Source of the DNA: Escherichia coli
GTDB taxonomy: Bacteria; Pseudomonadota; Gammaproteobacteria; Enterobacterales; Enterobacteriaceae
Assembly: GCF_029227855.1 (NCBI RefSeq)
Contig: NZ_CP074356.1
Strand: one strand, 5' to 3'
DNA: 64,000 bases
Under the pieces are notes generated by a model, which had not been told where the DNA came from, made no database searches, and was given only the letters and a program-made list of their open reading frames with translations. Below are positions 35,743 through 64,000 of the stretch, piece after piece. Made by a program: the position numbers and the translations under genes. Within the stretch, counting starts at the first letter, position 1; each line of letters starts with the position of its first letter.

Positions 35743-35743
<1 letters not shown>

Positions 35744-42949: not shown

Positions 42950-43029
42950 AGAAAAATTATTATGACAAGCCTCTCATTCTCTTGTCATTTCCCCCCCATT
43001 TAGGCACAATGCGCCGCTGTCAAAAAATG

Positions 43030-43068
43030 ACTAAAAACCGACGTTTCATCAGCGTCGGTTATTTTTTG
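43030..43068 (+). terminator. Rho-independent terminator downstream of yeeY
   Basis: aaccgacgtttcatcagcgtcggtt hairpin followed by attttttg. Confidence 0.7.
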
Positions 43069-43215
43069 CTTCAAACCAATCATTCATACCAAGAGGCCGG
43101 GCTTCGTACCGGATAGATATTTACTAAAAATCGACAGTTGTTGTCGCTGAGGAATCCAAAAAAATGGGGCAATTTTTTGCTTACGCGACGGTTATCACCG
43201 TAAAGGAGAATGACC

Positions 43216-44752: not shown

Positions 44753-45811
44753 ATGTTTTCAATGATATTAAGCGGGCTAATTTGTGGTGCTCTGCTGGGA
44801 TTTGTCATGCAGCGTGGGCGTTTTTGCCTGACAGGTGGTTTTCGCGATATGTATATCGCGAAAAATAATCGCATGTTTTACGCCTTGCTGATTGCAATTT
44901 CGGTACAAAGCGTGGGGGTTTTTGCGTTAATTCAGGCGGGCCTACTGACTTACGAAGCCGGGGCGTTCCCGTGGCTTGGTACTGTTATAGGTGGGTATCT
45001 TTTCGGGCTGGGAATTGTTCTGGCGGGTGGATGTGCCACCGGGACCTGGTATCGCGCGGGTGAGGGATTGATCGGCAGTTGGATCGCGCTTTTCACTTAT
45101 ATGGTGATGAGTGCGGTGATGCGTTCTCCACACGCCAGTGGTTTAAATCAAACCTTGCAGCACTACAGTACTGAACATAACTCTATTGCTGAGACTTTTA
45201 ATTTGTCTGTGTGGCCGTTGGTTGCCGTTTTGCTGGTGATAACGCTCTGGGTAGTGATGAAAGAGTTGAAGAAACCAAAATTAAAAGTCGCGACCTTACC
45301 GCCGCGCCGAACCGGGATCGCTCATATTCTGTTTGAAAAACGCTGGCATCCCTTTGTCACTGCTGTACTCATCGGTTTGATTGCGCTTTTAGCCTGGCCC
45401 CTGAGTGAAGCAACCGGACGCATGTTTGGGTTAGGAATCACTTCCCCAACGGCCAATATTCTGCAATTTCTGGTCGCGGGTGACGTGAAATACATTAACT
45501 GGGGCGTTTTCCTGGTGTTAGGGATCTTCGTGGGGTCATTTATTGCAGCCAAAGCGAGTCGTGAGTTCCGCGTTCGCGCAGCTGATGCACAAACAACATT
45601 ACGTAGCGGGTTAGGTGGTGTACTGATGGGCTTCGGTGCCAGTATTGCAGGTGGTTGCTCTATCGGTAATGGACTGGTTATGACTGCAATGATGACCTGG
45701 CAGGGCTGGATTGGCCTTGTATTTATGATTCTCGGAGTCTGGACTGCGTCCTGGCTTGTGTATGTTCGACCGCAGCGTAAGGCGCGACTGGCAACTGCTG
45801 CGGCAAATTAA
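44753..45811 (+). CDS. yeeE: Thiosulfate transporter YeeE/TsuA (YeeE/YedE family membrane protein)
   Basis: 352 aa polytopic membrane protein with conserved Cys-containing loops (GRFCLTGG, GGCATGTWYR, GGCSIGNG). Confidence 0.92.
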   Translation: MFSMILSGLICGALLGFVMQRGRFCLTGGFRDMYIAKNNRMFYALLIAISVQSVGVFALIQAGLLTYEAGAFPWLGTVIGGYLFGLGIVLAGGCATGTWYRAGEGLIGSWIALFTYMVMSAVMRSPHASGLNQTLQHYSTEHNSIAETFNLSVWPLVAVLLVITLWVVMKELKKPKLKVATLPPRRTGIAHILFEKRWHPFVTAVLIGLIALLAWPLSEATGRMFGLGITSPTANILQFLVAGDVKYINWGVFLVLGIFVGSFIAAKASREFRVRAADAQTTLRSGLGGVLMGFGASIAGGCSIGNGLVMTAMMTWQGWIGLVFMILGVWTASWLVYVRPQRKARLATAAAN

Positions 45812-49686: not shown

Positions 49687-50745
49687 GTGCGTGCCGATAA
49701 GTCATTAAGCCCGTTTGAAATCCGGGTATACCGCCATTACCGCATTGTGCATGGTACTCGGGTCGCGCTGGCATTCCTGCTCACTTTTCTCATTATCCGC
49801 CTGTTTACTATCCCGGAAAGCACCTGGCCGCTGGTCACCATGGTGGTGATTATGGGGCCAATCTCGTTCTGGGGGAACGTTGTCCCTCGTGCCTTCGAAC
49901 GTATTGGCGGTACGGTGTTGGGGTCGATTTTAGGTCTTATCGCTCTACAACTGGAGTTAATCTCGTTACCGCTGATGTTAGTCTGGTGCGCGGCGGCCAT
50001 GTTCCTTTGCGGTTGGCTGGCGCTGGGTAAGAAACCGTATCAAGGTTTATTGATTGGGGTGACGCTGGCAATTGTTGTTGGTTCCCCGACAGGTGAAATT
50101 GATACGGCGTTATGGCGAAGCGGCGATGTGATCCTCGGCTCTTTACTGGCAATGTTGTTTACCGGTATCTGGCCACAACGGGCGTTCATCCACTGGCGCA
50201 TTCAACTGGCAAAAAGTCTGACCGAGTATAATCGGGTCTATCAATCTGCATTCTCACCGAACTTACTCGAACGCCCGCGTCTGGAAAGCCATCTACAAAA
50301 ACTCCTGACCGATGCCGTGAAAATGCGTGGGCTGATTGCGCCCGCCAGCAAAGAAACTCGTATTCCAAAATCGATATATGAAGGTATCCAGACCATTAAC
50401 CGCAATCTGGTTTGTATGCTGGAGTTGCAAATCAATGCATACTGGGCCACGCGCCCCAGCCATTTCGTGTTATTGAACGCGCAAAAACTTCGTGATACCC
50501 AGCACATGATGCAGCAAATACTGCTGAGCCTTGTTCATGCGCTGTACGAAGGTAATCCGCAGCCGGTTTTTTCCAATACGGAAAAATTGAACGATGCTGT
50601 GGAAGAGCTGCGTCTGTTGCTTAATAACCACCATGACCTGAAGGTTGTGGAAACACCAATCTATGGTTATGTGTGGCTGAACATGGAAACGGCGCATCAG
50701 CTTGAGTTGCTATCGAATCTGATTTGCCGGGCCTTGCGCAAATAA
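49687..50745 (+). CDS. yeeA: Inner membrane protein YeeA (FUSC-like)
   Basis: 352 aa; GTG start; hydrophobic N-half. Confidence 0.88.
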   Translation: MRADKSLSPFEIRVYRHYRIVHGTRVALAFLLTFLIIRLFTIPESTWPLVTMVVIMGPISFWGNVVPRAFERIGGTVLGSILGLIALQLELISLPLMLVWCAAAMFLCGWLALGKKPYQGLLIGVTLAIVVGSPTGEIDTALWRSGDVILGSLLAMLFTGIWPQRAFIHWRIQLAKSLTEYNRVYQSAFSPNLLERPRLESHLQKLLTDAVKMRGLIAPASKETRIPKSIYEGIQTINRNLVCMLELQINAYWATRPSHFVLLNAQKLRDTQHMMQQILLSLVHALYEGNPQPVFSNTEKLNDAVEELRLLLNNHHDLKVVETPIYGYVWLNMETAHQLELLSNLICRALRK

Positions 50746-50916
50746 TTCCTGAACTTCAGAATCATCTTGCTGCTGCTTCGATTCAGCAAGGATAAAGGGT
50801 ATGATAGTGAAAAGGGATAAAAGCATTGTCATCTGCGGCAGCTATGAGTAATGTTGGCCCTATCGAATAGCGGTTGCTTAAACGAATCCGACTCTCACAT
50901 TATCAGGGGTATAAAA

Positions 50917-51246
50917 ATGGAAACTACCAAGCCTTCATTCCAGGACGTACTGGAATTTGTTCGTCTGTTCCGTCGTAAGAACAAACTGCAACGTGAAATT
51001 CAGGACGTTGAGAAAAAGATCCGTGACAATCAGAAGCGCGTCCTGCTGCTGGACAACCTGAGTGATTACATCAAGCCGGGGATGAGCGTTGAAGCAATCC
51101 AGGGCATCATCGCCAGCATGAAAGGTGACTATGAAGATCGTGTTGACGATTACATCATCAAAAATGCCGAGCTCTCCAAAGAACGCCGCGATATCTCCAA
51201 AAAGCTGAAAGCTATGGGCGAAATGAAAAACGGCGAAGCGAAGTAA
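50917..51246 (+). CDS. yeeX: UPF0265/DUF496 protein YeeX
   Basis: 109 aa from [41 protein letters not shown]; the ORF track start at 50851 is an extension. Confidence 0.92.
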
Positions 51247-51258
51247 TTCCTGTTTTAT

Positions 51259-51300
51259 TCAATGAGGGTTGCCCGGCAACCCTCATTGCTCATTGTTTCT
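51259..51300. terminator. Terminator hairpin between convergent yeeX and pduV
   Basis: aatgagggttgcc-cggcaaccctcatt perfect inverted repeat followed by a T-rich stretch on the plus strand. Confidence 0.65.
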
Positions 51301-51346
51301 TTTCTGTGTATCACCGTCATCATTCCCATCTGATAACCTATTGAAA

Positions 51347-51790
51347 TTAGCGACAGCCTTCTTCTGTATGCAGCAAGGCAAAAAGTTCTGCAACTCCATT
51401 GTTATTAACCGCACTGGTTACTAACACATTGTGCGCTCCAGCTTCCCGTAACCAACTTTTCACCAAAGATATTTGTTCCATGCTGGCTAAATCTGCTTTG
51501 GTGACTACTCCAATGACCGGGCGATTCATTGACGAGGTAAAGCCTGGCGAAAAAGGGGACCACGGTGCGTCCGCATTAAGCACCAGGGCGATAATGTCCG
51601 CTTCGCAGGCGCTGACCAACAGAGCACTGTAGAGGCTGCGGTTTTCGAGGTATTCGCCTGGTGTATCAATGGTGGTCGGGGACCAGACGATTGCCTGCGT
51701 TTTCTGATAATGAATATTTTCGCCACGCAGACATTGCGTGAGTGACGTTTTTCCGCACTGGCTGGGGCCGATGAGCATCATACGTTGCAT
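51347..51790 (-). CDS. pduV: PduV, EutP/PduV-family small GTPase associated with the Pdu microcompartment
   Basis: 147 aa; P-loop [10 protein letters not shown]; matches recalled Salmonella PduV. Confidence 0.88.
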
Positions 51791-51794
51791 AACG

Positions 51795-52145
51795 TCAGGT
51801 CCGCGTAATGGGGCAGGCGGTAAAGCGCATCATTTCACCCAGCGTACGGGTAACCTGGCTAAGTGCATATTCAATGGCAGAAACATCACCAGTCAGCACT
51901 ACGGCACCGGTAAAACGATCAAGAAAACCGATCTCTACAGCGCCTGATTTTGTGGCGATATCACATGCGATGATAGATGCTTCGCTGGGGGTAATTGTCA
52001 GAATGCCAATAGCAGAAACGGTGTCTGGTAAACCCAATTTCTTAAACAGATCCTTCCCTGGATTGGCGATGACATGTGCCAGCGTGACCTGCTTACCAGG
52101 GACATATTCCTGAATCATCCGTTCAGTTGTGTGCTGAGTTGTCAT
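51795..52145 (-). CDS. pduU: PduU, BMC shell protein (circularly permuted BMC domain)
   Basis: 116 aa from [32 protein letters not shown]; near-identical to recalled Salmonella PduU. Confidence 0.9.
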
Positions 52146-52699
52146 TATCCCTCCACCATCTGACGCCACATGGCTTCATGTGGACGGGCAATCACCGACC
52201 GATAGACCAACAAACCTTTTTCTCCCGCACGCTCGCTGGCGACAGAGACCGCGTTATTAACATCTGAAATATCGCCAGCAACCACCATGTAGCATTTACC
52301 GCCAATGCCAAAAGCCATATGCACGCGAACAAGAATGACATTCGCAGCTTTGACAGCACAATCGGCAGCGTCAATGCAGGCGGCGACACTCCAGGTTTCG
52401 ACTACGCCGACAGCCCGGTGCTGTTCAACTTGGTTCAGTCCGCTGGTTGCAGAAAGGAGGCTGGGATGAATATTCGGCAGGACAAGACTGTCGACCAGCA
52501 TTTCACCAGCAAGGGAAGCACCGCTGTTGATGGCCTGTTGCACCGCGCCCACATCGCCACCGAGCATCAGCAGAAATTTTCCGGGGCATAGCGTTTTGCT
52601 GACCAGTAACTCAACGTTGGCGCTTTTCAGCATGGCGTCGCCGGTTTCCATCCCTTTCGCGATACTGCTAAGTTCTAAAATACCTACCGCTTTCGACAT
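52145..52699 (-). CDS. pduT: PduT, tandem-BMC-domain shell protein
   Basis: 184 aa with two BMC domains; [29 protein letters not shown]. Confidence 0.9.
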
Positions 52700-52701
52700 C
52701 G

Positions 52702-54045
52702 TTAACCTCTCACAAGCGTAATCGCGTTTTCTGTCACATCGCTGACCATGCCATCAATACTGGCATGAATGGGGGCACCTAATGTGCCGTGTGGAATTTG
52801 ACCTACACATTGCCCATGAACGACGCGATCGCCTTTTTGTACACACGCAATTGCGCTGGCACCGATGTGCTGGCGTAACAATAACGTCACTTTTTCGGTC
52901 TGAGGCACCTGTTCAGACAATGGCGCATCCTGATACCACGGGGTTAAGCCAAGTCTGGTTACCAGCCGTTTTACGGGAATCAGTCGATAATTTGCCATGG
53001 GATCTGCAGGATTTAAGGTACCTTCGTAACGGAGATTTTGTGCGCGTAATTCTTGCTTAAGCAGGCGGTTTATGCGCATTGGTGAAATTCCTACCGGACA
53101 GGCGACGCTGGCGCAGACGTTGCACTCCGAACAGGTGAGCGCCGTCAGTAACAGTTGTGGCGTAGCGAGCTGTTGGTAGTTAACCGCACGTACTAATAAA
53201 TGGGGTGCCAGTTCGTGACCGATTAAATGACGTGGGCAGAGATCGGTACACAAGCGGCATTGCTCACAAACAGTTTTCGCGACGGCAAGTACGCTGCGGT
53301 CATTCTGCATTCGACGTTGGATCAGTGAATGAGAGTTGGGTAAAACCAGCAAGCCGCCAGTGGTTTTGCTGACTGGTGTGTCGAGCGATGTGATCAAACT
53401 TCCCATCATCGGCCCGCCATTGATAAAACCAGGAGCATCCACTGTTGCGCCGCCCGCCAGCGCCAGGACTTCACGTAAAGACATGCCGATGGGGACGGTT
53501 ACCGTTATTGGTTTCGCCACTGCACCATTAACGGTGAGTGTGCGGCGCGTCACTGGATACTGTTGCTCGACGGCTCTGGCAATATTAAGTACGGTTTGAA
53601 CATTATTGACCACCACACCGACGTTAACGGGTAATGCAGCGGGTGGAACACGGCGACCAGTTGCCATCCAGATGGTCAGCACTTCGTCTCCTGCGGGGTA
53701 AACGTCGGGCAAAATATGCAGGCGGATATCCGGTGGTAACAGTGGTGTGAGTGCGTTTATTGCCCGTTGATATTTCTCTTTCAGCGCGATGATTCCGCTA
53801 CTGGCCCCGGTGGCTTTCATCGCATAGTGAACACCGCGAAGCAGGCGGCTGGCTTGCTGCGCCATTAACTGTTGATCCACTTTCAACATTGGTTCGCATT
53901 CCGCCGCATTCACCAGGAACGTGTCAACACGCGCTTGTAGCTTAATATGGGTTGGGAAACCTGCGCCGCCAGCACCCACGACACCAGCTGCCTGTACTCG
54001 CTCGCGGATGGTCTGGTCGTCGCAGGAGGTTAACTCGACGTTCAT
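52702..54045 (-). CDS. pduS: PduS, cobalamin reductase (RnfC/NuoF-like flavoprotein with two 4Fe-4S motifs)
   Basis: 447 aa; GAGGAGFP nucleotide-binding motif; Cys clusters [12 protein letters not shown] and [13 protein letters not shown]. Confidence 0.9.
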
Positions 54046-55154
54046 AACAACTCCTCGAGCAGTTCTGCAATAGCGGTGGCATCAGCCGTACGCGGGTTGG
54101 TACGCAACGTTGCATCCGCCAGTGCCGCCTGAACCATATCTGGTATGCGTATTGACCATTCTGCTTTTTTTTCTTTCAGCACATTGGTAAGAGTCGGTAG
54201 CTTACAGGTTGTTTTAAGCTGTTCAATATGTTGAATAAGTATATTCAGGCTGGCGGTGTCATTGGCGTTGTCCGGGCATAAATGGCACGTTTTCGCCAGC
54301 CGGGCGTAGCGTTTGGCAGCGCGCGGATCGCCAGCATTAAAGCGGATAACCGCCGTGAGCAGGAGCGCATTCGCCAGGCCGTGTGGCAGATGAAACTGTC
54401 CGCCGAGTTGATGAGCAATTGCATGGTTTAATCCCAGTCCAGCTTGGCTAAAGGCCATTCCTGCAAGTGTCGATGCATTATGCATTTTGCCACGGGTGGC
54501 GAGACAATCGCCTTTCTTCACTGCAGTGGGCAGGTATTGAAAAACAATTTGCACGGCTTTTTCGACCAGTGCATCCGTGAAGTCGCTGGCGCGGGGAGAA
54601 ACATAAGCTTCAAGCGCATGGGTTAAAACATCCATCCCGGTATTGGCCGTTATCGCCGGTGGCACGCTGACGATCAGAGATGGATCAAGGATCGCGATAT
54701 CCGGATAAAGTGCATTATCGAAAAGGGGATATTTAATCCCTTTCTCAGGATCGCTGATGACACAAGCACTGGTCACTTCGGAACCGGTACCGCTGGTGGT
54801 AGGAATGGCTACGCAGGTTTCAATTTCAATGCCACACTGGCGACCGAACCAGACAATCGCTTTTGCGGCGTCCAGGGCAGAACCGCCGCCAAAACCGATA
54901 ACCACATCCGGGCGTAAAGTCTGCATTTGCGCAATGCCTTTCACCACGGTCTGGATAGTTGGGTCGGGCGTTATTTCGCTAAAAATACTAAGACGATTAC
55001 TGTCGGGCAGCGCCTGATGCAACGTGTTAATGAGTGGTGAGCGTGCCAGAAAGACGTCGCAAATAATCCAGATGTGTTTATGAGAGAAACGGCTAAGTAC
55101 CTTGAGACTTCCCGGTCCGCTGTATAAACGCGTCTGCAGTGAAAAAGTATTCAT
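54042..55154 (-). CDS. pduQ: PduQ, iron-containing 1-propanol dehydrogenase
   Basis: 370 aa; Fe-ADH family glycine-rich region GFGGGSALDAAKA. Confidence 0.9.
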   Translation of the reverse strand: MNTFSLQTRLYSGPGSLKVLSRFSHKHIWIICDVFLARSPLINTLHQALPDSNRLSIFSEITPDPTIQTVVKGIAQMQTLRPDVVIGFGGGSALDAAKAIVWFGRQCGIEIETCVAIPTTSGTGSEVTSACVISDPEKGIKYPLFDNALYPDIAILDPSLIVSVPPAITANTGMDVLTHALEAYVSPRASDFTDALVEKAVQIVFQYLPTAVKKGDCLATRGKMHNASTLAGMAFSQAGLGLNHAIAHQLGGQFHLPHGLANALLLTAVIRFNAGDPRAAKRYARLAKTCHLCPDNANDTASLNILIQHIEQLKTTCKLPTLTNVLKEKKAEWSIRIPDMVQAALADATLRTNPRTADATAIAELLEELL

Positions 55155-55164
55155 TTCCGTTTCT

Positions 55165-56550
55165 CTAGCGAATTGAAAAGCCGCTGGTTAACACGCAGCG
55201 TCGTGAGCGGGCAAAAGTCCGTGCTGACGTTGTCCCTTCTCCGGTCGGTGTTGCAATGGTAAAGGTCGTAAAGCCTTCGCCGCCGACGCCAATACCCGCC
55301 CAGGAGGGGCCGTTTTTGACAAAGATTGAGGTTTGCATAACGCGTGCGGTAAGGTTGAGCCGTGAGACGTTCTGCGAGTGCATAATTGCCGTGTGGTGCA
55401 AGCCGTCTTCCACTTTCAGCGCCAGGGTGAGAGCGCTATCAAAATCGTTGACCTTCACAATGGGCAGCATTGGCATCAGTTGTTCACAAGTAACCCAACT
55501 ATCATTGGCGTCGACAACAGCAATCAGTAGGCGCGGCGCTTTTGCGGGCAAAGGGAGGCCTGCCGCTTCCAGCAAGGCTGATGGGCTTTTCCCAACCAGT
55601 TTTTTGTTGGCGCTACCGTCTGGCAGGCAAATTGCACGCAATTTCTCCGTTTGCTCATAGTTAAGAAGAAGCGCGCCAAAACTTTGCATCTGCTGAATTA
55701 AATAATCTGCCACTGATGCCACGACAATCAGGCTTTTTTCAGCAATACACGGCAGGTTGTAATCAAATGAAGCGCCGTTGATGATGTCCTCGGCGGCTTT
55801 CACAATATCCGCCGTTTCATCGACGATGCACGGAGGGTTACCCGCTCCGGCACCAATCACTTTCTTGCCACTTTTCATTCCCATGGCGACGATCCCCGGA
55901 CCGCCGGTAATCGCCAGAACGCTGATTTTAGGGTGCGCCATCATCTGTTCGGTTGCAGCAAAGGTCGGTTCAGATACGGTAACGATCAGGTTATGAATGC
56001 CACTACAACGAAACGCGATGTCTTCGATTGTGGTAATCAGTTTTAACGAAACGTATTTGGCTCCCGGGTGTGGACTGAAGTAGACGCTATTACCTGCTGC
56101 CAGCATGCTGATGCTGTTGTTAATGATGGTTTCCGTGGGGTTGGTGCTTGGCGTGACCGAGCCAATAACCCCAAACGGGGAGTATTCAAACAAAACCATG
56201 CCACCATCACCGGTTAGTGCAGTGGTGGTTAAATCTTCAATTCCTGGCGTGTTATCAAGTGCCGCTTTGTTTTTTAGGTACTTATCTTCTTTATTTCCCA
56301 TCCCCGTTTCTTTGGCGCTTTCTTCTGCCAGTTCGGTCAGGCGGGGTATTAATTCTTCGCGAATGGCGCTGATAATGGCGCTACGGGTTTTAAGCGGGCA
56401 CTGTTGAAAGCGTAAAAAGGCCTGGTGTGCTGCGCAGACCGCTTCATCAACAGTCTGGAAAATAGCGTTTCTTTGCATTCGTTGCGTAGCGGGGGCAAGC
56501 TGCTCACGCAGAATATTGCGGATCAGTGTTTCTAATTCAGAGTTATTCAT
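55165..56550 (-). CDS. pduP: PduP, CoA-acylating propionaldehyde dehydrogenase
   Basis: 461 aa aldehyde dehydrogenase with N-terminal amphipathic extension MNNSELETLIRNILREQL. Confidence 0.92.
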   Translation of the reverse strand: MNNSELETLIRNILREQLAPATQRMQRNAIFQTVDEAVCAAHQAFLRFQQCPLKTRSAIISAIREELIPRLTELAEESAKETGMGNKEDKYLKNKAALDNTPGIEDLTTTALTGDGGMVLFEYSPFGVIGSVTPSTNPTETIINNSISMLAAGNSVYFSPHPGAKYVSLKLITTIEDIAFRCSGIHNLIVTVSEPTFAATEQMMAHPKISVLAITGGPGIVAMGMKSGKKVIGAGAGNPPCIVDETADIVKAAEDIINGASFDYNLPCIAEKSLIVVASVADYLIQQMQSFGALLLNYEQTEKLRAICLPDGSANKKLVGKSPSALLEAAGLPLPAKAPRLLIAVVDANDSWVTCEQLMPMLPIVKVNDFDSALTLALKVEDGLHHTAIMHSQNVSRLNLTARVMQTSIFVKNGPSWAGIGVGGEGFTTFTIATPTGEGTTSARTFARSRRCVLTSGFSIR

Positions 56551-57554
56551 TGGTTTACTCCCACGTTAATTGCCGCCATTGCGCTTTGGGCAATATCCAT
56601 GTCTTGTTCAACGCTACCACCGCTGATGCCAAGCCCCCCGAGCAATATTCCGTCACGCCAGAGGGGGAAGCCGCCACCAAAGGTGACGACTTTGCCTTGC
56701 ATATGGCTTTCGAGCCCGTAAAGCGGCGCGCCGGGTTGCACGGTATCAGCAAGTTTGTGGGTTGCCGTTTTCATCGCCACGGCAGTCCAGGCTTTTTTCG
56801 GTGCCAGTTCACTGCTGACCAACAGGGCATCAGGCATCCGCCAGGTAACACTTTCTGTTCCGTTGGCATCAACAATGCTGATGACAACGGGAATATGCAG
56901 TTCATCCGCGCGCATTGCCGCACTACGAATGAGCTGGTGAAGATCCTGAAAAGTGAGCGGCATTGTGCGTTCCTTCAATGCTGGTGTGTGGTTGGCTTTG
57001 TGATAACGTTTTGTGATTTCCTGAATTATCAGGTTTTGATGAGCGACGTTGTCTTCCACGCGGGCGAGGGCATACAGGCAATCGGAAAGTCGGTTGATAT
57101 AGTGCAGCAAAACATTCCGGACGGTGATTTCCGTTGTCAGTTCAACCAGACGTCTTTCAGCACGTCGAGCCACCGTGCGGGCGAAATGCATACGGCTTGC
57201 AGCTTCACATCGCCCAGGCAGAATGAAGCTGTGAACTGGGGGGACGGCGTTCATTGCGCTATCGATCGCGTTTTCCAGCGCGGCAATTTCTTCCGTACCG
57301 ATGTAACGCAGCTGCGCTGACGGCTGTTCGCTTTCACTGGCAAGTTCGGCGCTAAACCAAAATATCTGTTGTTGAATGGCTTCCAGTAAGATGCGATGGC
57401 TTTCGATGGCGGTGGCGCAATAACACAGACTGAGTGTCGCGTTCAGTTCATCCAGCGTGCCATAGGTTTCGACACGTAGATGAGTTTTGCTGACGCGCTG
57501 TCCGGTAAATAAAGACGTACTTCCTGAATCACCTGTTCGGGTATAAATTGCCAT
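56547..57554 (-). CDS. pduO: PduO, ATP:cob(I)alamin adenosyltransferase with C-terminal DUF336 domain
   Basis: 335 aa; MAIYTRTGDSGSTSLFTGQRVSK N-terminus typical of PduO-type ATR. Confidence 0.92.
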   Translation of the reverse strand: MAIYTRTGDSGSTSLFTGQRVSKTHLRVETYGTLDELNATLSLCYCATAIESHRILLEAIQQQIFWFSAELASESEQPSAQLRYIGTEEIAALENAIDSAMNAVPPVHSFILPGRCEAASRMHFARTVARRAERRLVELTTEITVRNVLLHYINRLSDCLYALARVEDNVAHQNLIIQEITKRYHKANHTPALKERTMPLTFQDLHQLIRSAAMRADELHIPVVISIVDANGTESVTWRMPDALLVSSELAPKKAWTAVAMKTATHKLADTVQPGAPLYGLESHMQGKVVTFGGGFPLWRDGILLGGLGISGGSVEQDMDIAQSAMAAINVGVNQ

Positions 57555-57565
57555 CTTTCAGCTCC

Positions 57566-57841
57566 TTAGCGCGAAAGCGTATCGACAATGCCGACCACTG
57601 CCAGGTCGATGGCCTCGTTAGGGCCGGAAAACACATGTCTGGCGCTGGAACCACTGCTGAGGAGTACCAACTCACCAACGCCTGCGCCGACTGAATCAAC
57701 GGCAACTTCGTCGCCGGTTAATGGCGTGAGAGGCAGTTCGCCGTCAGCACTGACCCGGCGAACCAGCAGCAGTTTTTTCCCGATCAGAGATGGTGATTTT
57801 TGCGTGGATACTACCGCGCCAGTGACTCGAGCCAGATGCAT
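57566..57841 (-). CDS. pduN: PduN, BMC vertex (pentamer) protein of the EutN/CcmL family
   Basis: 91 aa; [17 protein letters not shown]. Confidence 0.9.
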
Positions 57842-57844
57842 AGG

Positions 57845-58336
57845 TTACTCCTGCCTAATTAACTGAATATTTCGGGTAATTGCCGCTTCACGAGCCAGTG
57901 CGGTCACACAACATTTCCGCTGTAACACCAGTATTCCCGAGCTTAACTGTGCGATATCGGCATAACTTAAAAGTCGATCACGATGAAGGTAGATCGGTTG
58001 CCCTTGTTCGTCGCACCAGCTTAGCGGTAGACGGGCGAGAGTCTTCAATTCAATGGCGTTCAGGAAATGACGCTGCAACGACAATTGAATGTGCATTCCC
58101 CAGGCTAACGCTTCGTGTATCTGGATTGCTGCTCGATCTGACGTTTCGTTCTCCGCAAGTTGTCGCAGCAGCGGCAGATCGACATATCGGATTTGTAATG
58201 ACGCATACTGATGAACGCTCTCTTGAACGCTGGCGTCTCGCAGTTGAAAAACAGTCAGCACGAGTGCTTTTCTCGCACGTTGTTTAAGGCGAAAAACCAC
58301 CTCGTCAACAATACGTTGCATCAGCATGTTATTCAT
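57845..58336 (-). CDS. pduM: PduM, microcompartment structural protein
   Basis: 163 aa; position between pduL and pduN; length matches recalled Salmonella PduM. Confidence 0.8.
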   Translation of the reverse strand: MNNMLMQRIVDEVVFRLKQRARKALVLTVFQLRDASVQESVHQYASLQIRYVDLPLLRQLAENETSDRAAIQIHEALAWGMHIQLSLQRHFLNAIELKTLARLPLSWCDEQGQPIYLHRDRLLSYADIAQLSSGILVLQRKCCVTALAREAAITRNIQLIRQE

Positions 58337-58965
58337 GGCACTGACACCAGTGTGGCAAAAACGTCAGGGCTATCAGCGCCTGCGGCGTTGGCCTCATCGG
58401 TATCAATATGCATTTCAAGACGCATATCCGGAGAGACGCGAACAGCGACGTTTTCGAATATCAGTCGTCGCTCACCACCTTCAATGGCAACCGCCACTTT
58501 ATCGCCATGCGTAACGCCATAAATCAGGGCATCCAGCGGAGACATATGAATATGCCGTTGCGCGACAATGACGCCAGATGTGATCTCCAGTTCCGCAAAT
58601 GGGCTTATCAAACGAATCCCCGGAGTGCCGCTGAGATCGCCTGACATGCGTAGCGGGGCGGTGATCCCTAACGTTCTGGCGTCCGTCCGGGAAATTTCCA
58701 CCTGGCTTGCATTGCGTAGCGGCCCCAACAAGCGAACGTTGTGCAATTTGCCTTTTGGTCCCTCCAGCGTAACAACCTGTTCAGCAGCGAATTGGCCAGG
58801 TTGCATTAACGGCTTTTTCTCGCTAATCGGTTGTTCAGGAAAAAGACGCAAATAATCCGCTGTTGAAAGATGAATATGGCGACTGGAAACGCCCAGTGGG
58901 ATAGGGCGCTCGCGCATCTCATCCAGAATCTGGCTCACTGTTTCCTGCAGGGTTTGTTTATCCAC
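58333..58965 (-). CDS. pduL: PduL, phosphate propanoyltransferase
   Basis: 210 aa; N-terminal MDKQTLQETVSQILDEM amphipathic peptide followed by PduL/EutD-type domain. Confidence 0.9.
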   Translation of the reverse strand: MDKQTLQETVSQILDEMRERPIPLGVSSRHIHLSTADYLRLFPEQPISEKKPLMQPGQFAAEQVVTLEGPKGKLHNVRLLGPLRNASQVEISRTDARTLGITAPLRMSGDLSGTPGIRLISPFAELEITSGVIVAQRHIHMSPLDALIYGVTHGDKVAVAIEGGERRLIFENVAVRVSPDMRLEMHIDTDEANAAGADSPDVFATLVSVP

Positions 58966-58967
58966 TG

Positions 58968-59390
58968 CTACTCCCCTCGCTTATTGGCGTACAGGCAAAG
59001 TGAGCGGGGCTCACCTTTTTGCCGCTGACATGCCGGGTCAAGACACAAATTACAACTGATAATCTCTGAGGTGACGGTTGTTGCTGGTGTTTTGCTTGTT
59101 TCAACCGTCACGGTCAATGCTTCAATTGTGTGGGGCAGAATGCCGTCTCCCGGGCGGGCAATCACTTTGTGTGCGACAAGGCCATTTCGCTGTCCGGCGA
59201 AACTGGCTCCCGTCGCGATCGCCGCATTAACCGAGGCGACGTCACCGGTGATTTTGATGAGCGTCCAGCCTGAGCCATTGGTCTTCTCAAGGCCAACCAG
59301 CGTGATGGACGCGGCTTTTGCCATAGCGTCTGCGCAACTGATGGCGAGAGCCAGACCACTGACTTCAAGTAATCCCAGTGATTGCTTCAC
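58968..59390 (-). CDS. pduK: PduK, BMC shell protein with Cys-rich C-terminal extension
   Basis: 140 aa; N-terminal BMC domain MKQSLGLLEVSGLALAISCADAMAKAA; C-terminal CNLCLDPAC...C. Confidence 0.88.
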   Translation of the reverse strand: MKQSLGLLEVSGLALAISCADAMAKAASITLVGLEKTNGSGWTLIKITGDVASVNAAIATGASFAGQRNGLVAHKVIARPGDGILPHTIEALTVTVETSKTPATTVTSEIISCNLCLDPACQRQKGEPRSLCLYANKRGE

Positions 59391-59413
59391 GCTGTGCTCC
59401 TTAGCGAATGGGG

Positions 59414-59689
59414 TTATGCTGATTTAGGTAAAATAGCCTCAACATCACTGTGTGGGCGCGGGATGACATGGCAGGATTTCACTTCGCCAACGGCGCTTGC
59501 GGCGGCGCTTCCTGCATCAACGGCGGCTTTTACTGCGCCAACATCGCCACGGACCATCACCGTAATCAGACCCGAACCAATCTTTTCATAGCCAACCAGC
59601 TGCACGTTGGCGGATTTAACCATGGCATCTGCAGCTTCAATTGCGCCAACTAACCCTTTTGTTTCAACCAGTCCTAGTGCGTTGTTCAT
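59414..59689 (-). CDS. pduJ: PduJ, major BMC hexamer shell protein
   Basis: 91 aa; [40 protein letters not shown]. Confidence 0.9.
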
Positions 59690-59708
59690 ACTGCATTTCT
59701 CCTGTGGA

Positions 59709-60059
59709 TTATGAGTGGAGTTCCCGGAAGGGAATCCCTTTTACCAGGCGGGCAGCGTTAGAGCCAATGCTGCGCCGGGCATGGTTATCTTGTTGATACA
59801 TCAGCGTAAACAGTGGCGCTGATGCCGGTAAGTTTTTGTAATGCACAATCAGTTTTTCCTGATCGCAGGCAATGCCAACCAACAGGGGAGATTGACTAGC
59901 AGCCAGCCAGGCGCTATCGATAACTTCACCTGACGGAATGTGTTGAATGCGAAAGGGAATACCTTCCTCTTCAATGCCAAGAAGCACCTCATCCCATATA
60001 GTGATGCAGTTACCGATCTCCATGACGACGATGGCTGGTGCACGCTCTTTACTTTCCAT
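59709..60059 (-). CDS. pduH: PduH, diol dehydratase reactivase small subunit
   Basis: 116 aa; start overlaps the pduG stop; position after pduG. Confidence 0.85.
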
Positions 60060-61881
60060 GAATCGACTCCTTGTGCCAGGCGATGAGTAGCCCAGTAGCT
60101 ACCGCGTTGCGCGGACCTTCGCTACCACGGATATTCCCCCGTCCGGCGACCAATCGATAATGCGCCAATGCATCGGTGACTAACTGCGGTACTTCGAAAT
60201 CCAGCGAAGAACCGCCCACCAGAACGACGAACGGAATATCGCGAATATTTCCGGCAGGGCTTACCTGACGTAGCGCGCGCAGGGCATTGGTTACGAAGAC
60301 ACGCTCTTTCGCACTGCGGCGGACAGCGCGTACTTTTTCCAGCGTCAAATCACCGGGAATGGGCACCAGTTCGTCGGGTTTCACTACACAGACGCGGGCA
60401 AATACATGGGGGGATAGGGGAGTAGGGAAGAACTGAACGCTGCCATCTTCATGGCGTAAGTGGAACAGGCTTTCTACTTTTGCCAACGGGTACTTTTTGA
60501 TTTCTTCTGCCAGATAACGATCATTTAAGCCCAGCTCACGAGCGATAATCATCGTTACCATGTCGCCCGCTCCCGCAAGGTGAGTGGCAACAATTTCTCC
60601 TTTCTGATTGATGATGGAGGCATCGGTAGAGCCTGCACCTAAGTCCAGAATTGCCAGTGGACGTGTGGTTCCAGGGGTAGTCAAGGCCCCCTGAATGGCG
60701 GCTTCTGCTTCTGCGCCTCCGACCTGAACATCAACATGCAGTTTTTGCTTAATTTCACTGGCGATCATTGCCATTTGCAGACGGTCGGATTTCACCATAG
60801 AGGCAATACCCACAGCCTGTTCCAGTGAAAATTCACCTGCCAGACCGCCGGTTACGCTGACGGGGACAGAGGTATCTATCGCCAGCAAATCCTGAATAAA
60901 AATTTCGTTGCTGGGTTTGTTGGTCAGTTCCGCCATGGTCTGGCGAACATGTTCCAGCATTCCGCCGATGTTGGTGCCTGGTTCTCCCGTCACGTTTTCC
61001 AGTTTTGGGCACTCACCGACCGCTTTCATAATGGCATCGGCACCAGCAGCTACATCAACGCGCGTTGTGCGCCCGGCAGAAAGCAGTTCGATATTTCCGG
61101 CGGGTATCGAACGGGCTTTAACGTCGCCAGAAGGCGTTTTCACTACCACTGCTGAACGGTTGCCGATTAGCGCCCGCGCGACAGGAACAATATTTTTAGT
61201 CTCTTCAGCATTGAGGGCGAAAACGGTGGCAATCCCATACGGGTTAGACAGGGTTTCGATAACTTTCCCGGGAACGGCAACTTCAATTGCAGCCAGCATG
61301 CCGAGCGGAATACGATCGATGTAGAGGACTTCATCAACAATAGGTACAGCAATTTCCAGGCGGTTACTGACCAGCACGCCATCGTCGCGTTGCAGAATAA
61401 CGCCAGTCAGCTGATATCCGGCACGTACGGAGGCGTTTATCATCGTCGCGATATCGGCAAAATCAAATGCCGATGACACCACCAGGATGTAAGGTGTGTC
61501 CGCCGGGCGTGTTAATAACTCTTGCGGAGTGATGGTGAGCCCTACGCCCAGCCCCACTCCGCCCGGAGTTTTCGGGTTGTGACCGATCATGGTTGATTCG
61601 GTGATGATGGTTTCAGTGATGGTTTCCATCGCCACATCACCAATGACCGGAGTTGCTTCGTTGATACGAATAAGCGAAATATCGCTAACATTGATGCCGA
61701 CTTTTTTCGTTGCCTGTGCGAGCGCCTCCTGAATACCATGGACGTTACGCAACGTACCTTTAATTCCGGTGGTTTCCGCCAGGGCGCTACTCACGAACGA
61801 CAACTCTCCAGTTGCACTGAGCGTTGCCAGCGCAACCTCTGTTGATGAGTTGCCGATATCAATGCCTGCTATATATCGCAT
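60049..61881 (-). CDS. pduG: PduG, diol dehydratase reactivase large subunit
   Basis: 610 aa; MRYIAGIDIGNSSTEVALA N-terminus (ASKHA ATPase fold). Confidence 0.92.
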   Translation of the reverse strand: MRYIAGIDIGNSSTEVALATLSATGELSFVSSALAETTGIKGTLRNVHGIQEALAQATKKVGINVSDISLIRINEATPVIGDVAMETITETIITESTMIGHNPKTPGGVGLGVGLTITPQELLTRPADTPYILVVSSAFDFADIATMINASVRAGYQLTGVILQRDDGVLVSNRLEIAVPIVDEVLYIDRIPLGMLAAIEVAVPGKVIETLSNPYGIATVFALNAEETKNIVPVARALIGNRSAVVVKTPSGDVKARSIPAGNIELLSAGRTTRVDVAAGADAIMKAVGECPKLENVTGEPGTNIGGMLEHVRQTMAELTNKPSNEIFIQDLLAIDTSVPVSVTGGLAGEFSLEQAVGIASMVKSDRLQMAMIASEIKQKLHVDVQVGGAEAEAAIQGALTTPGTTRPLAILDLGAGSTDASIINQKGEIVATHLAGAGDMVTMIIARELGLNDRYLAEEIKKYPLAKVESLFHLRHEDGSVQFFPTPLSPHVFARVCVVKPDELVPIPGDLTLEKVRAVRRSAKERVFVTNALRALRQVSPAGNIRDIPFVVLVGGSSLDFEVPQLVTDALAHYRLVAGRGNIRGSEGPRNAVATGLLIAWHKESIHGK

Positions 61882-61890
61882 AGTTCGTCC

Positions 61891-62409
61891 TTAATCGTCG
61901 CCTTTCAGTTTTTTGCGCTCGACATAAAGTTCCGCAGCTTCACGGACAAATGCAGCACAAATTTTGGCCTGATAACGCCGTTCAAGATCGTCAGCAATGG
62001 CAATAAGTTCTTGCTTAGTCGAACGATAAGGGCGTAACGCATTGTAGATTTCGAGGATGCGATCATCCGGTACTGAGGTAAGCTCAGCGGCGCGTTCAAA
62101 ATTCATCGCCAGGCGATCGCGACCAGCATCTCTGGCAATCGCGGCCTGAATACGCAATGTTTCAGGGGTTATACGCATATCCTGGGCGGTGACGTTATCG
62201 CTGAGTACATTTTCCAGAGTGAAATCGTCGAGCGTTTTATTGGTCGCCGTTTTAACCCATTCCGGATGTTTATTTGCCAGCGGATAATCCGTCACTTTGG
62301 CGCTCTGTATTGACGCGTTGGGTGCCGCAGAAACAGGAGCTGCATCCTGTAAACTGTTCATGCGATTCAACACGTCCCTGACCATCGACTCAATTGCATC
62401 GGTATTCAT
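61891..62409 (-). CDS. pduE: PduE, B12-dependent diol dehydratase small (gamma) subunit
   Basis: 172 aa; matches recalled PduE. Confidence 0.9.
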   Translation of the reverse strand: MNTDAIESMVRDVLNRMNSLQDAAPVSAAPNASIQSAKVTDYPLANKHPEWVKTATNKTLDDFTLENVLSDNVTAQDMRITPETLRIQAAIARDAGRDRLAMNFERAAELTSVPDDRILEIYNALRPYRSTKQELIAIADDLERRYQAKICAAFVREAAELYVERKKLKGDD

Positions 62410-62423
62410 GAAGGTTTCCTTTG

Positions 62424-63092
62424 TTAAAACGTCACGCGCAGTTCTTGCGGTTTTTTGCCAGTGACCACGTACTTCGTCTCTTTAATATGCAAAATGGCAG
62501 ATTTGGCCTGGTATTTCGGCCGCGCCATTTGATCGTTGAGGGTCGGCACCGGTTGTGGAGACTCACGCTTTGCATAACGCGCGGCGTTTTTGCCAATCTG
62601 ACGATAAGTTTCCAGCGTCAACAAAGGCGCTTGTGGGAATAGTTCCAGGTTAGACAAGGGAGGAAGACCTTGCTGGTGGATAACCGTTGTGCCTTTCGAC
62701 TGAATACCGATAGCAATACCTGAACCACTAAGACGATCGCCTTCGACTGCTACGAATGCGACATCGGACGATTTAAAGCAGCGAATCACACGGGCTTTAA
62801 TGCCTTCTTCTTCGATACCAGCAATCACTTCGCGCAAGATGTTTTTATGCGGAATACCGATGATATTGACGGTTTGCGCCAGGCCGAACGCCGGGCCTAC
62901 AGCAATAATGACTTCATCTTGCTGAGTGCCTTGTTGGGCTTCGCCAATTTCGGCCAGAAAAGTTCCGGTATCTGGCGCGGAAGAGACAGTTGCACAGGCA
63001 GGTGCGCGAAATGAAACGGGCTTGTCGCTGGTTTGCATTTCTGCCAGCACGTCTTCGATAATCTGACGCAGTAATTTTTCGTTAATTTCCAT
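62424..63092 (-). CDS. pduD: PduD, B12-dependent diol dehydratase medium (beta) subunit
   Basis: 222 aa; N-terminal [19 protein letters not shown] amphipathic peptide. Confidence 0.92.
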
Positions 63093-63101
63093 TTCTCACC
63101 C

Positions 63102-64000
63102 TTAGTCAATTTCGTTGGGATCAAGTGCACCGGGAATATTTTTGATCTCTTCCCAGCGTTCCCCTTGCAGGCGGTAACCTGTAGCCGGTCCGGCGTAATC
63201 ATTGACGTCATTGACCGCAGAGAGCACTTGTCCGTCATCGACGATGATGGCTGAGGTATGGAGATAATCGCCGGTCAGTTTTGCTTTTTGCATGTTGAGC
63301 ATGTCTTGGGCGACATCGGTAAAACCGCCTTGCGCCAGGGCTTTCACCACTTCCAGGCTGTTCCGGTTTTTATTGATAATCTCCTGGGCGAACTTGATGT
63401 CTTCCACAATATTGCGCTCAGGCATATCTTTTGAACCGTGGGCATAGGTTGCCGCTTCGACTTCTTCATCGGTAATAGGCGGTAGTCCCATACCGGCAAA
63501 GACAGCCTGTAAAGCGCGAGCGGCTTTATTGCGGATAGCGATAACATCTTCTTCGCGTACTGGTCGCAGGCCGCCATCAACCTTCAGGTCACGCTGAATG
63601 ACGTTGTAATCATCGAAGTCTTCAGCATCTTCGTTTGAACCAGCAAACATGTTGTCGTAGTTCGGCACAGCGGAAAAACCGGAAGAGATAAAGTCGGTAC
63701 CTGGCAGAAACTGCATCAGGAAACGTGCGGTACGGCGCATATCCGAGTGGGTAAAGGTCTGGTCATTACTGGAGGCGCATTCCAGATCCAGCGATGAGCA
63801 AATTAAGTTTTCCGCTAATACTGCGCGGATGCCTGATGGCACAGCCGATGGAACACCGATGCAGCTTACCGAACCATTCTGTAGACCCTGAACTCCTGCG
63901 GCTTTGGTGATGTAAATGCAACGAGCCTCGAGATAAAGCATTGATTTGCCTTCCGCGTAACCCATCTGTACTTCAGAGCCGGAGCCGGAAGTAAAGCGCA
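63102..64000 (-). CDS. pduC: PduC, B12-dependent diol dehydratase large (alpha) subunit, C-terminal part (5' end outside window)
   Basis: Frame open to the window edge; roughly 299 C-terminal codons including ...GPATGYRLQGERWEEIKNIPGALDPNEID-stop. Confidence 0.9.
   Translation of the reverse strand, partial: RFTSGSGSEVQMGYAEGKSMLYLEARCIYITKAAGVQGLQNGSVSCIGVPSAVPSGIRAVLAENLICSSLDLECASSNDQTFTHSDMRRTARFLMQFLPGTDFISSGFSAVPNYDNMFAGSNEDAEDFDDYNVIQRDLKVDGGLRPVREEDVIAIRNKAARALQAVFAGMGLPPITDEEVEAATYAHGSKDMPERNIVEDIKFAQEIINKNRNSLEVVKALAQGGFTDVAQDMLNMQKAKLTGDYLHTSAIIVDDGQVLSAVNDVNDYAGPATGYRLQGERWEEIKNIPGALDPNEID

Follow-up and report, generated by a model that had tools for sequence, protein, structure and literature searches.

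The distal part of the native propanediol utilization operon in an Escherichia coli strain

Does the cluster of tightly packed genes at one end of a 64,000-nucleotide stretch of Escherichia coli DNA (hereafter the window) encode a 1,2-propanediol utilization (pdu) microcompartment and, if so, is it a functional native locus, a relic or a recent arrival? We read positions 51347-64000 as almost certainly the distal 12.65 kb of the native E. coli pdu operon, which is an already described system and no new kind.

Gene content and identity

Seventeen co-directional genes were found among the open reading frames of the window, all on the minus strand, between its end at 64000 and position 51347, the final base of the pduV stop codon. 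From 63998 down to 51347 they run pduC (partial)-D-E-G-H-J-K-L-M-N-O-P-Q-S-T-U-V. This agrees with a sequence-only reading that had described 17 tightly packed pdu genes, pduC through pduV, except that only the 3' 54% of pduC lies in the window. Intergenic gaps do not exceed 23 bp (the value for pduJ-pduK), and overlaps of 1-11 bp occur at five junctions, the longest (11 bp) joining pduH and pduG. The other 16 genes are whole and contain no frameshift or internal stop; the pduC frame is open up to the window edge. The features are as follows.

63102..64000, minus strand: pduC, diol dehydratase large subunit; 298 C-terminal codons present out of 554, the remainder lying past the window end
62424..63092, minus strand: pduD, diol dehydratase medium subunit, 222 aa; NF011616, 390.9 bits (cut-off 248)
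61891..62409, minus strand: pduE, diol dehydratase small subunit, 172 aa; NF011971, 357.8 bits (cut-off 282)
60049..61881, minus strand: pduG, diol dehydratase reactivase large subunit, 610 aa; TIGR04491, 960 bits
59709..60059, minus strand: pduH, reactivase small subunit, 116 aa; PDB 2D0O chain B, E=1.3e-50, and RefSeq annotation
59414..59689, minus strand: pduJ, hexameric BMC-H shell protein, 91 aa; BMC-family matches, RefSeq name PduJ on identical DNA
58968..59390, minus strand: pduK, BMC-H shell protein, 140 aa, GTG start; residues 1-84 match the BMC domain, C-terminal tail Cys-rich
58333..58965, minus strand: pduL, phosphate propanoyltransferase, 210 aa, GTG start; NF011652, 256 bits (cut-off 209)
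57845..58336, minus strand: pduM, microcompartment protein, 163 aa; NF011957 equivalog, 246.8 bits (cut-off 179)
57566..57841, minus strand: pduN, pentameric vertex (BMC-P) shell protein, 91 aa; CcmL/EutN family matches, RefSeq PduN
56547..57554, minus strand: pduO, two-domain ATP:cob(I)alamin adenosyltransferase, 335 aa; TIGR00636 (PduO_Nterm), 159 bits (cut-off 108), and RefSeq
55165..56550, minus strand: pduP, CoA-acylating propionaldehyde dehydrogenase, 461 aa; NF011927, 717 bits (cut-off 403), and RefSeq
54042..55154, minus strand: pduQ, iron-type 1-propanol dehydrogenase, 370 aa; Fe-ADH family matches, RefSeq '1-propanol dehydrogenase PduQ'
52702..54045, minus strand: pduS, RnfC-like flavoprotein with Fe-S clusters, putative cobalamin reductase, 447 aa; TIGR01945, 257.8 bits (cut-off 246)
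52145..52699, minus strand: pduT, tandem-BMC (BMC-T) shell protein, 184 aa; PDB 3PAC and 3N79 matches
51795..52145, minus strand: pduU, circularly permuted BMC shell protein, 116 aa; PDB 3CGI match, RefSeq start
51347..51790, minus strand: pduV, P-loop protein of the EutP/PduV family, 147 aa, closing the operon; TIGR02528, 187 bits (cut-off 138)
51260..51288, no strand assigned: perfect 13-bp hairpin in the pduV-tmaR gap, from a terminator scan

Pdu or diol dehydratase models of NCBIfam are matched above curated cut-offs by PduD, PduE, PduG, PduL, PduM, PduO (N-terminal domain), PduP and PduV, the last through the EutP/PduV family, and the shell proteins match BMC families. RefSeq gives the same gene names to 100% identical DNA (NZ_AP045174.1). 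Together with solved structures and 55-97% amino acid identity to Salmonella and Citrobacter orthologues, these models bear out the gene identities and order proposed from sequence.

The open frame of pduC (63998-63102) covers positions 258-555 of the 555 in NCBIfam profile NF011979 and is about 98% identical to residues 257-554 of the Klebsiella oxytoca diol dehydratase alpha chain (1DIO/5YSH); the full gene, in a genome with identical DNA, encodes 554 aa. Positions equivalent to Gln296, Asp335 and Ser362, residues noted in the literature on 1DIO, are conserved in the alignment. PduD is 88% identical to its S. arizonae orthologue.

Could the pdu label be wrong, and the cluster be a different system (eut, a glycyl-radical grp/GRM type or a glycerol dehydratase of the dha type)? 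The best NCBIfam models for PduJ, PduU and PduN do carry Eut or carboxysome names (EutM, EutS and CcmL/EutN, respectively), and PduU passes the EutS-named subfamily model (134.4 against a cut-off of 123). However, most of these shell matches fall below curated cut-offs, and the signature enzyme is a B12-dependent diol dehydratase: PduE passes the NF011971 equivalog, 'propanediol dehydratase small subunit PduE', whereas it fails the DhaB3 equivalog (156 bits, cut-off 285). Diol enzymes also far outscore glycerol enzymes in structure matches of PduC (647 against 468 bits), PduG (1152 bits for 2D0O chain A against 757 for the glycerol dehydratase reactivase) and PduH (173 against 42 bits). PduU is closer to Salmonella PduU (3CGI, 216 bits) than to E. 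coli EutS (130 bits), the genes follow the order of pdu in Salmonella and Citrobacter, and no ORF of the operon matches an ethanolamine ammonia-lyase or glycyl-radical enzyme in NCBIfam. We regard another microcompartment or dehydratase system as extremely improbable.

PduJ is 96.7-100% identical to Salmonella and Citrobacter PduJ, its best PDB match among natural proteins being 5D6V (170 bits), followed by PduA (142 bits). PduT matches 3PAC (Citrobacter PduT) and 3N79 (Salmonella PduT) over its full length at about 321-325 bits. PduN is 90% identical to its Salmonella counterpart; PduM, encoded by the most divergent gene, is 55% identical. PduK is 73% identical to S. arizonae PduK and carries Cys113, 116, 121 and 132 in its tail, whose length is variable, since alignments to other genera are gapped and extend over as many as 186 columns. 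The most likely start of pduU is 52145, giving the 116 aa of RefSeq and of Salmonella structure 3CGI, rather than the longest-ORF start, 52169.

A shortened operon and its surroundings

The window differs from the genome of E. coli JNEC-KY178 by 6 SNPs in 64 kb. Beyond the window, that genome carries pduB and pduA, then pduF-pocR in divergent orientation and further on a B12 riboswitch, a CbiG fragment and cobUST. Evidence for the promoter, pduA/B, pduF and pocR, none of which the window includes, comes from a near-identical genome; the predicted continuation to pduB, pduA, pduF and pocR is indeed seen in a genome 100% identical over 50700-64000. No cbi operon lies beside pdu in the near-identical genome, which has only cobUST there, so that an exogenous corrinoid would be needed and pdu activity would depend on imported cobalamin or cobinamide.

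At the other end, pduV and tmaR are convergent and separated by 100 bp. This gap holds the hairpin (13 pairs, 7 of them G-C), which marks the 3' boundary of the pdu operon. Its T-rich tail is on the plus (tmaR) strand in the terminator scan, and it may also end pdu transcripts. In S. arizonae, pduW and pduX (404 and 300 aa) sit between pduV and tmaR, and S. diarizonae, Intestinirhabdus and two Citrobacter species have a gap of equal size there. In Escherichia, pduV abuts tmaR at this syntenic site: both genes are missing from all four Escherichia lineages compared, and tblastn found no trace of them in the window. The Escherichia pdu operon is a shortened version, which ends at pduV, lacks pduW and pduX and is unlinked to a cbi operon.

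Distribution, descent and integrity

Taking as carriers genomes that hold at least 80% of the region, we found the pdu operon in 637 of 5426 complete E. coli genomes (about one in eight), at 97.5-100% identity in the rows sampled. Yet a 3' remnant of pduV (177-299 bp) is kept in 5409 of the 5426 (99.7%), which shows that the site was ancestrally occupied and that absence of the operon, as in K-12, results from deletion. The claim that the system is absent from K-12 accordingly stands for the operon but not for the whole locus, K-12-lineage genomes retaining 177-183 bp of pduV. The remnant is annotated yoeF in one pdu-negative genome (H58), and in one pdu-negative strain it is joined straight to the cbiG' fragment and cobUST. 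In E. coli, pdu is thus a presence/absence polymorphism at an ancestral site between tmaR and cobU, and, lost from 88% of complete genomes, it is dispensable.

Patchiness (12% of genomes) might also reflect recent horizontal transfer of a genomic island to this strain, with Salmonella, Citrobacter or Klebsiella as donor, and the authors of an ST372 study concluded from the patterns that there had been several acquisitions, associated with neighbouring islands and the O-antigen region (PMC9997745). We consider such a recent island highly improbable: besides the near-universal remnant, E. whittamii, E. albertii and a divergent lineage labelled E. coli also have pduV next to tmaR, with no pduW or pduX between them. 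GC content equals that of the flanks (0.518 vs 0.513), and pooled dS to Salmonella and Citrobacter is saturated, pdu giving about 1.8-2.0 and the flanking genes about 2.0, a match that argues for vertical descent. Homologous recombination with other E. coli may have brought the operon into some lineages of the species, which would agree with the ST372 data. Outside Escherichia, the only DNA more than 95% identical to pdu comes from a metagenome-assembled genome labelled Citrobacter, which also carries a Citrobacter-type locus and is probably a mixed bin.

A third reading takes the locus for a decaying relic, intact-looking but non-functional and heading for the deletion seen in most strains. 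Most complete E. coli genomes keep only the pduV remnant, as we have seen, and pduW, pduX and the cbi operon are already lost; moreover, E. albertii pduQ aligns over only 330 of 370 residues, with a gap, and pduO is partial in one E. coli genome (L051). Nevertheless, all 17 ORFs are intact in the window, and key motifs are retained: the PduV P-loop (GPSQCGKT, residues 8-15), PduT Cys38 and the PduS Cys clusters (260/263/266/270 and 305/308/311/316). Comparison with three other Escherichia lineages gave dN/dS values of 0-0.39 in all genes (pooled dN 0.03, dS 0.32-0.35), so that each is under purifying selection. In other strains, the native operon can be induced, and growth on 1,2-propanediol requires it. 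We therefore hold a relic to be very unlikely.

Predicted function and comparison with known systems

By orthology, the native E. coli operon would follow the Salmonella/Citrobacter paradigm. Within a shell of PduA/B (outside the window) and PduJ, K, N, T and U, PduCDE would dehydrate 1,2-propanediol to propionaldehyde, which PduP would convert to propionyl-CoA; PduQ (80% identical to Salmonella) would recycle NAD+ through 1-propanol formation, and PduL would make propionyl-phosphate and regenerate CoA. PduGH, PduO and PduS would reactivate the dehydratase and re-adenosylate cobalamin, the cofactor presumably deriving from imported cobalamin or cobinamide via CobUST and PduO. The cobalamin reductase role of PduS, which is syntenic with and 80% identical to Salmonella PduS, comes from established Salmonella work; PduM and PduV may have structural or positioning roles. 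We assign these putative individual roles, and that of PduK, by orthology alone. PduW is a propionate kinase and PduX an L-threonine kinase. With pduW missing, the final ATP-yielding step would fall to kinases encoded elsewhere, such as AckA or TdcD, and the lack of pduW, pduX and cbi could limit the pathway under some conditions.

For the strain studied here we infer expression, shell assembly and growth on 1,2-propanediol from its DNA. The proposed propanediol/fucose-rhamnose capacity needs narrowing: formation of 1,2-propanediol from fucose or rhamnose is a general E. coli trait (fuc/rha), to which pdu adds propanediol use. The function of the native operon is already published for AIEC strains: a pduC deletion mutant of CUMT8 does not grow on 1,2-propanediol (PMC9220930), and in LF82, 15 of 17 listed pdu genes are induced by bile salts (PMC6379400).

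Orthologues in identical order are found gene by gene in Salmonella arizonae/diarizonae, Citrobacter, Klebsiella and Yersinia (35-98% amino acid identity). The Salmonella enterica system (pduABCDEGHJKLMNOPQSTUVWX, with divergent pocR-pduF and an adjacent cob/cbi operon) shares with the E. coli copy its pduA-pduV order, its signature enzyme, reactivase and shell set, its cofactor-recycling genes and its chromosomal neighbourhood, between tmaR-yeeA-sbmC and pocR/pduF. Identity to the subsp. arizonae proteins is 55-97.5%, and the published nucleotide identity of E. coli pdu to LT2 is about 77%. The E. coli copy differs in lacking pduW, pduX and the cbiA-P operon (just the riboswitch, CbiG fragment and cobUST being present), in gapped PduK tail alignments and in a lower GC content (0.52 vs 0.54). 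From Klebsiella oxytoca, PddABC (1DIO) and the reactivating factor DdrAB (2D0O) are matched by the C-terminal half of PduC (chain A) and by full-length PduG and PduH; they belong to a different genus, and across genera the small subunits and PduH diverge more than PduC.

The E. coli eut system, also B12-dependent, has paralogous families (PduJ/EutM, PduU/EutS, PduN/EutN, PduV/EutP, and PduT), but its signature enzyme is ethanolamine ammonia-lyase instead of diol dehydratase; gene-specific Eut models are matched below their cut-offs, only PduU passing a EutS-named subfamily model, and Pdu structures outscore Eut structures. No structural difference separates the locus from native pdu of the LF82, CUMT8 and ST372 lineages: the LF82 gene table runs from pduB to pduV with matching lengths (for example, pduK 422 bp and pduV 443 bp) and ends at pduV. 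The copy in the window is an allele of this native E. coli pdu in an O23-type background.

Gene content and type of the operon

The ORF listing bears out the coordinates, gene count and strand that the sequence-only reading had assigned to a 1,2-propanediol utilization (pdu) operon: an unbroken run of 17 minus-strand ORFs covers positions 51347-64000 of the window.

ORFs of the pdu run
63102-window end, minus strand: pduC, partial, 298 of 554 codons
62424-63092, minus strand: pduD, 222 aa
61891-62409, minus strand: pduE, 172 aa
60049-61881, minus strand: pduG, 610 aa
59709-60059, minus strand: pduH, 116 aa
59414-59689, minus strand: pduJ, 91 aa
58968-59390, minus strand: pduK, 140 aa
58333-58965, minus strand: pduL, 210 aa
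57845-58336, minus strand: pduM, 163 aa
57566-57841, minus strand: pduN, 91 aa
56547-57554, minus strand: pduO, 335 aa
55165-56550, minus strand: pduP, 461 aa
54042-55154, minus strand: pduQ, 370 aa
52702-54045, minus strand: pduS, 447 aa
52145-52699, minus strand: pduT, 184 aa
51795-52145, minus strand: pduU, 116 aa
51347-51790, minus strand: pduV, 147 aa

Intergenic gaps do not exceed 23 bp, and genes overlap at five junctions. pduC is listed as a 287-aa ORF (63102-63965), which could be taken for an interrupted or truncated gene; this is an artefact of the window boundary, since the in-frame translation stays open up to the edge and yields the C-terminal 298 of 554 residues. A GTG-initiated ORF of 264 aa lies antisense to pduO/pduP (56526-57320, plus strand). 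It is most likely a chance ORF, because it falls wholly inside well-conserved coding sequence of the other strand. The Rfam search of the whole window returned no RNA-element match within 51347-64000.

PduD, PduE, PduG, PduL, PduM, PduO (N-terminal domain), PduP, PduS (RnfC-like) and PduV (EutP/PduV family) all score above the NCBIfam curated cut-offs. PduC, PduD and PduE are the predicted subunits of the coenzyme-B12-dependent diol dehydratase, the signature enzyme of Pdu systems: PduE matches the equivalog 'propanediol dehydratase small subunit PduE' at 357.8 bits (cut-off 282), PduD scores 390.9 against a cut-off of 248, and the partial PduC spans positions 258-555 of the 555 in its NCBIfam profile. 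The PduC fragment shares about 98% identity with the alpha subunit of the Klebsiella oxytoca diol dehydratase (1DIO chain A/5YSH). The putative reactivase is represented by PduG and PduH, both matching 2D0O, the diol dehydratase reactivating factor: PduG (TIGR04491, 960 bits) scores 1152 bits with chain A versus 757 with the glycerol enzyme, and PduH 173 bits with chain B versus 42.

The shell proteins match the BMC-H, BMC-T and pentamer (CcmL/EutN) families, with PduJ and PduK as BMC-H, PduT as BMC-T, PduU as permuted BMC and PduN as pentamer; PduA (BMC-H) and PduB (BMC-T) are seen only in the near-identical genome of E. coli JNEC-KY178 (NZ_AP045174.1), beyond the window. PduT matches the Citrobacter and Salmonella PduT structures over its full length and keeps Cys38, and the top natural-protein PDB match of PduJ is 5D6V, with PduA second. 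Together, these genes would provide the shell set expected of a Pdu compartment. As for predicted lumen enzymes, PduP (NF011927, 717 bits versus a cut-off of 403) and PduL (NF011652, 256 bits versus 209) are identified by profile, and PduQ by Fe-ADH family matches and its RefSeq name. Cobalamin recycling is the predicted activity of PduO (adenosyltransferase; PduO_Nterm 159 bits, cut-off 108) and of PduS (reductase), an RnfC-like protein that has two Cys clusters and shares both synteny and 80% identity with its Salmonella orthologue. The PduV P-loop, GPSQCGKT, is present. Salmonella comparators were the type strains of subspecies arizonae and diarizonae and the LT2-derived PDB entries 3N79 and 3CGI, rather than the LT2 genome itself.

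The sequence-only reading had named an eut or grp assignment as what would count against it, and no ethanolamine ammonia-lyase or glycyl-radical enzyme occurs among the ORFs. For a Eut microcompartment, PduU does pass the cut-off of an EutS-named subfamily model; none of the ORFs in 51347-64000 matches EutB/EutC, gene-specific Eut shell models score below their cut-offs, and PduU is closer to Salmonella PduU (216 bits) than to E. coli EutS (130). For a glycyl-radical type (GRM/grp), none of the 17 proteins matches the glycyl-radical diol dehydratase, choline lyase or activase families. A shell-less dha glycerol dehydratase (DhaB123) is rejected on three counts: the DhaB3 equivalog scores 156 bits (cut-off 285), six shell genes were counted in the pdu region, and glycerol enzymes are outscored by diol enzymes in the PDB search (468 versus 647 bits for the PduC fragment). 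The pdu finding is real and was correctly interpreted, and the system is one already known.

Outside the pdu run, the gene order in the window is colanic acid cluster, O23-type O-antigen cluster, gnd, IS200C, ugd, wzzB and his operon, then yefM-yoeB, yeeZ, yeeY, plaP, tsuAB, sbcB, dacD, sbmC, yeeA and tmaR. The O23-family cluster (21158-27129) comprises wzy, wzx and four glycosyltransferases. Its GC content is about 0.30, versus about 0.52 in the surrounding sequence, and a JUMPstart element (21158-21196) precedes it. At the edge of this region, between gnd and ugd, lies the IS200C transposase gene (29903-30361), with the Hfq-binding RNA STnc490 on its 5' side (29770-29893, 144.6 bits). Rfam also matched an algC RNA motif immediately 5' of cpsG (11505-11554) and the sRNA STnc240 between yeeY and yoeI/plaP (42995-43069).

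The two ends of the operon

The pdu operon stops at pduV, and the convergent tmaR (yeeX) follows 100 bp on. A 13-bp perfect hairpin between the two genes, on the tmaR side, was the only element found in a promoter scan of 50700-52000, which returned no sigma-70-like site. By contrast, 2.2-2.5 kb separate pduV from tmaR at the equivalent syntenic position in S. enterica arizonae and diarizonae, Intestinirhabdus, Citrobacter braakii and Citrobacter amalonaticus. The S. arizonae interval is occupied by PduW, an acetate/propionate kinase of 404 aa (NF009063, 874 bits), and PduX, a GHMP-type kinase of 300 aa. Queried by tblastn against the window and the extended pdu locus of JNEC-KY178, S. arizonae PduW and PduX retrieved nothing (best E-value 0.13), and blastn of the intergenic region detected no pduW/pduX remnant. 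The distal genes for propionate kinase (pduW) and L-threonine kinase (pduX) are thus missing. Both are accessory, so that their absence marks the Escherichia variant without excluding Pdu membership.

The junction lacks pduW and pduX in every Escherichia lineage recovered, four in number: E. coli, E. whittamii, E. albertii and a divergent genome labelled E. coli. The published gene table of strain LF82 likewise ends at pduV, with equal gene lengths (PMC6379400). This table and the shared junction make the pduW/pduX-less operon the standard Escherichia form and no peculiarity of this strain. That Escherichia pdu is consistently without these two genes is a modestly useful addition.

At the other end, the predicted continuation past the window to pduB, pduA, pduF and pocR finds support in NZ_AP045174.1, whose sequence matches the window at 100% identity over 50700-64000, with six SNPs in the full 64 kb and none in the pdu region. 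One of the six, at 44906, falls inside tsuA/yeeE (44753-45811), an intact 352-aa ORF in the window; the JNEC-KY178 annotation lists this gene as a pseudogene (internal stop). The JNEC-KY178 sequence continues with the rest of pduC, pduB, pduA and the divergent facilitator and regulator genes pduF and pocR. Like the promoter upstream of pduA, these last two lie beyond the window and are present and intact in JNEC-KY178. After pocR no linked cbi operon is found beside pdu in this genome, only a cobalamin riboswitch, a 145-aa N-terminal CbiG fragment (profile positions 1-125 of 351) and cobUST (35709-36539 of the extended locus). This arrangement is the scar of cbi operon loss. Lack of a linked cbi operon is the usual state in E. 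coli.

Deletion remnants and descent

At least 80% of the pdu region is held by 637 of 5426 complete E. coli genomes (11.7%), at 97.5 to 100% identity among the carriers sampled. Some match to the region is found in 5409 of the 5426 (99.7%); in sampled pdu-negative genomes it consists of the final 177-299 bp of pduV, about 95-97% identical. In a K-12 derivative (L060, 3995-4377) a 183-bp pduV stub abuts the CP4-44 island, and the 183-bp stub is annotated yoeF in another pdu-negative genome, H58. In a bovine strain (L061, 6001-6635) a 297-bp stub is directly fused to a cbiG' pseudogene, with cobUST next, which indicates that pduA-U, pduF, pocR and the riboswitch were removed in a single clean deletion. 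Pdu-negative E. coli show two distinct deletion end-points. The sequence-only reading had called the operon absent from K-12: in substance it is missing, but the remaining stub means that the site was not one never occupied. As nearly all E. coli keep such a stub, absence reflects deletion.

Three further loci deserve mention. E. coli SCPM-O-B-8794 (L051, 10001-10288) retains only PduO residues 240-335, suggesting a third, partial-deletion state. In the E. albertii type strain (L005, about 10545-11653), the pduQ alignment covers only 330 of 370 residues, with about 120 nt ahead of pduS left unexplained; this pduQ may be disrupted. Two pdu loci occur in the metagenome-assembled genome labelled Citrobacter sp. 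HRGM_Genome_0066, one of E. coli type (PduO 98% identical) and one of Citrobacter type (78%), which probably reflects a mixed bin and not a transfer.

Every pdu gene is under purifying selection, with dN/dS of 0-0.39 against three other Escherichia lineages (pooled dN about 0.03). E. albertii PduO (72% nucleotide identity) was aberrant in the first dN/dS alignment; this was an artefact, another aligner giving a dS of 0.37. Pooled dS within Escherichia is 0.32-0.35 for pdu versus 0.40-0.76 for the flanking genes tmaR, yeeA, sbmC and dacD; against Salmonella and Citrobacter it is 1.8-2.0 for pdu (pS about 0.70, saturated) versus about 2.0 for the flanks (pS 0.70). GC content is 0.518 in pdu versus 0.513 in neighboring housekeeping genes.

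From this flank-like divergence, the shared syntenic site and the distribution of pduV remnants, we favor vertical inheritance within the Escherichia lineage, accompanied by repeated losses. Recent import of pdu from another genus is disfavored by GC, dS and the remnant distribution. Homologous recombination may have re-introduced the operon from one E. coli lineage to another, as a study of ST372 suggests (PMC9997745). That 99.7% of E. coli genomes keep a pduV remnant, together with the common site and the flank-equal synonymous divergence, would argue that the Escherichia-Salmonella-Citrobacter ancestor already had pdu at the tmaR site, rather than that the operon was lost and then regained.

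Predicted metabolism and relation to known systems

The analysis demonstrates the operon's gene content and integrity, its orthology, the selective constraint on it and its distribution; the chemistry is predicted. By orthology to Salmonella and Citrobacter, PduCDE would convert 1,2-propanediol to propionaldehyde within the shell; PduP and PduQ would dismutate the aldehyde, yielding propionyl-CoA and 1-propanol and recycling NAD+/NADH, and PduL would make propionyl-phosphate. PduGH, PduS and PduO would keep the adenosylcobalamin cofactor active. Gene content suggests that the cofactor would come from imported corrinoid and CobUST, and that the kinase step would be left to AckA, TdcD or another kinase. 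The Escherichia operon may represent a shortened form, ancestral and passed down vertically, that did away with pduW. If so, we may speculate that in this pduW-less operon PduV itself, beyond these housekeeping enzymes, supplies the conversion of propionyl-phosphate to propionate and ATP. PduV belongs to the EutP/PduV family, and the EutP equivalog is now named 'ethanolamine utilization acetate kinase' in NCBIfam. We consider such a role quite unlikely; if true, PduV, an enigmatic 'GTPase', would gain an enzymatic function.

With corrinoid available, this strain is probably able to use 1,2-propanediol, which makes pdu in this window a strain-level metabolic marker. The proposed capacity for propanediol/fucose-rhamnose fermentation needs rewording in its second part, since fermentation of fucose or rhamnose is itself no pdu trait; 1,2-propanediol is produced from these sugars by the strain itself or its neighbors. 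A pduC deletion mutant of E. coli CUMT8 does not grow on 1,2-propanediol (PMC9220930).

Our modestly useful additions concern evolution only, namely the lack of pduW/pduX, the pduV stub and the flank-like divergence, and open no new question. The pdu system is textbook material, and it is well documented that a minority of E. coli carry it, notably Crohn's-linked adherent-invasive strains and canine ST372.
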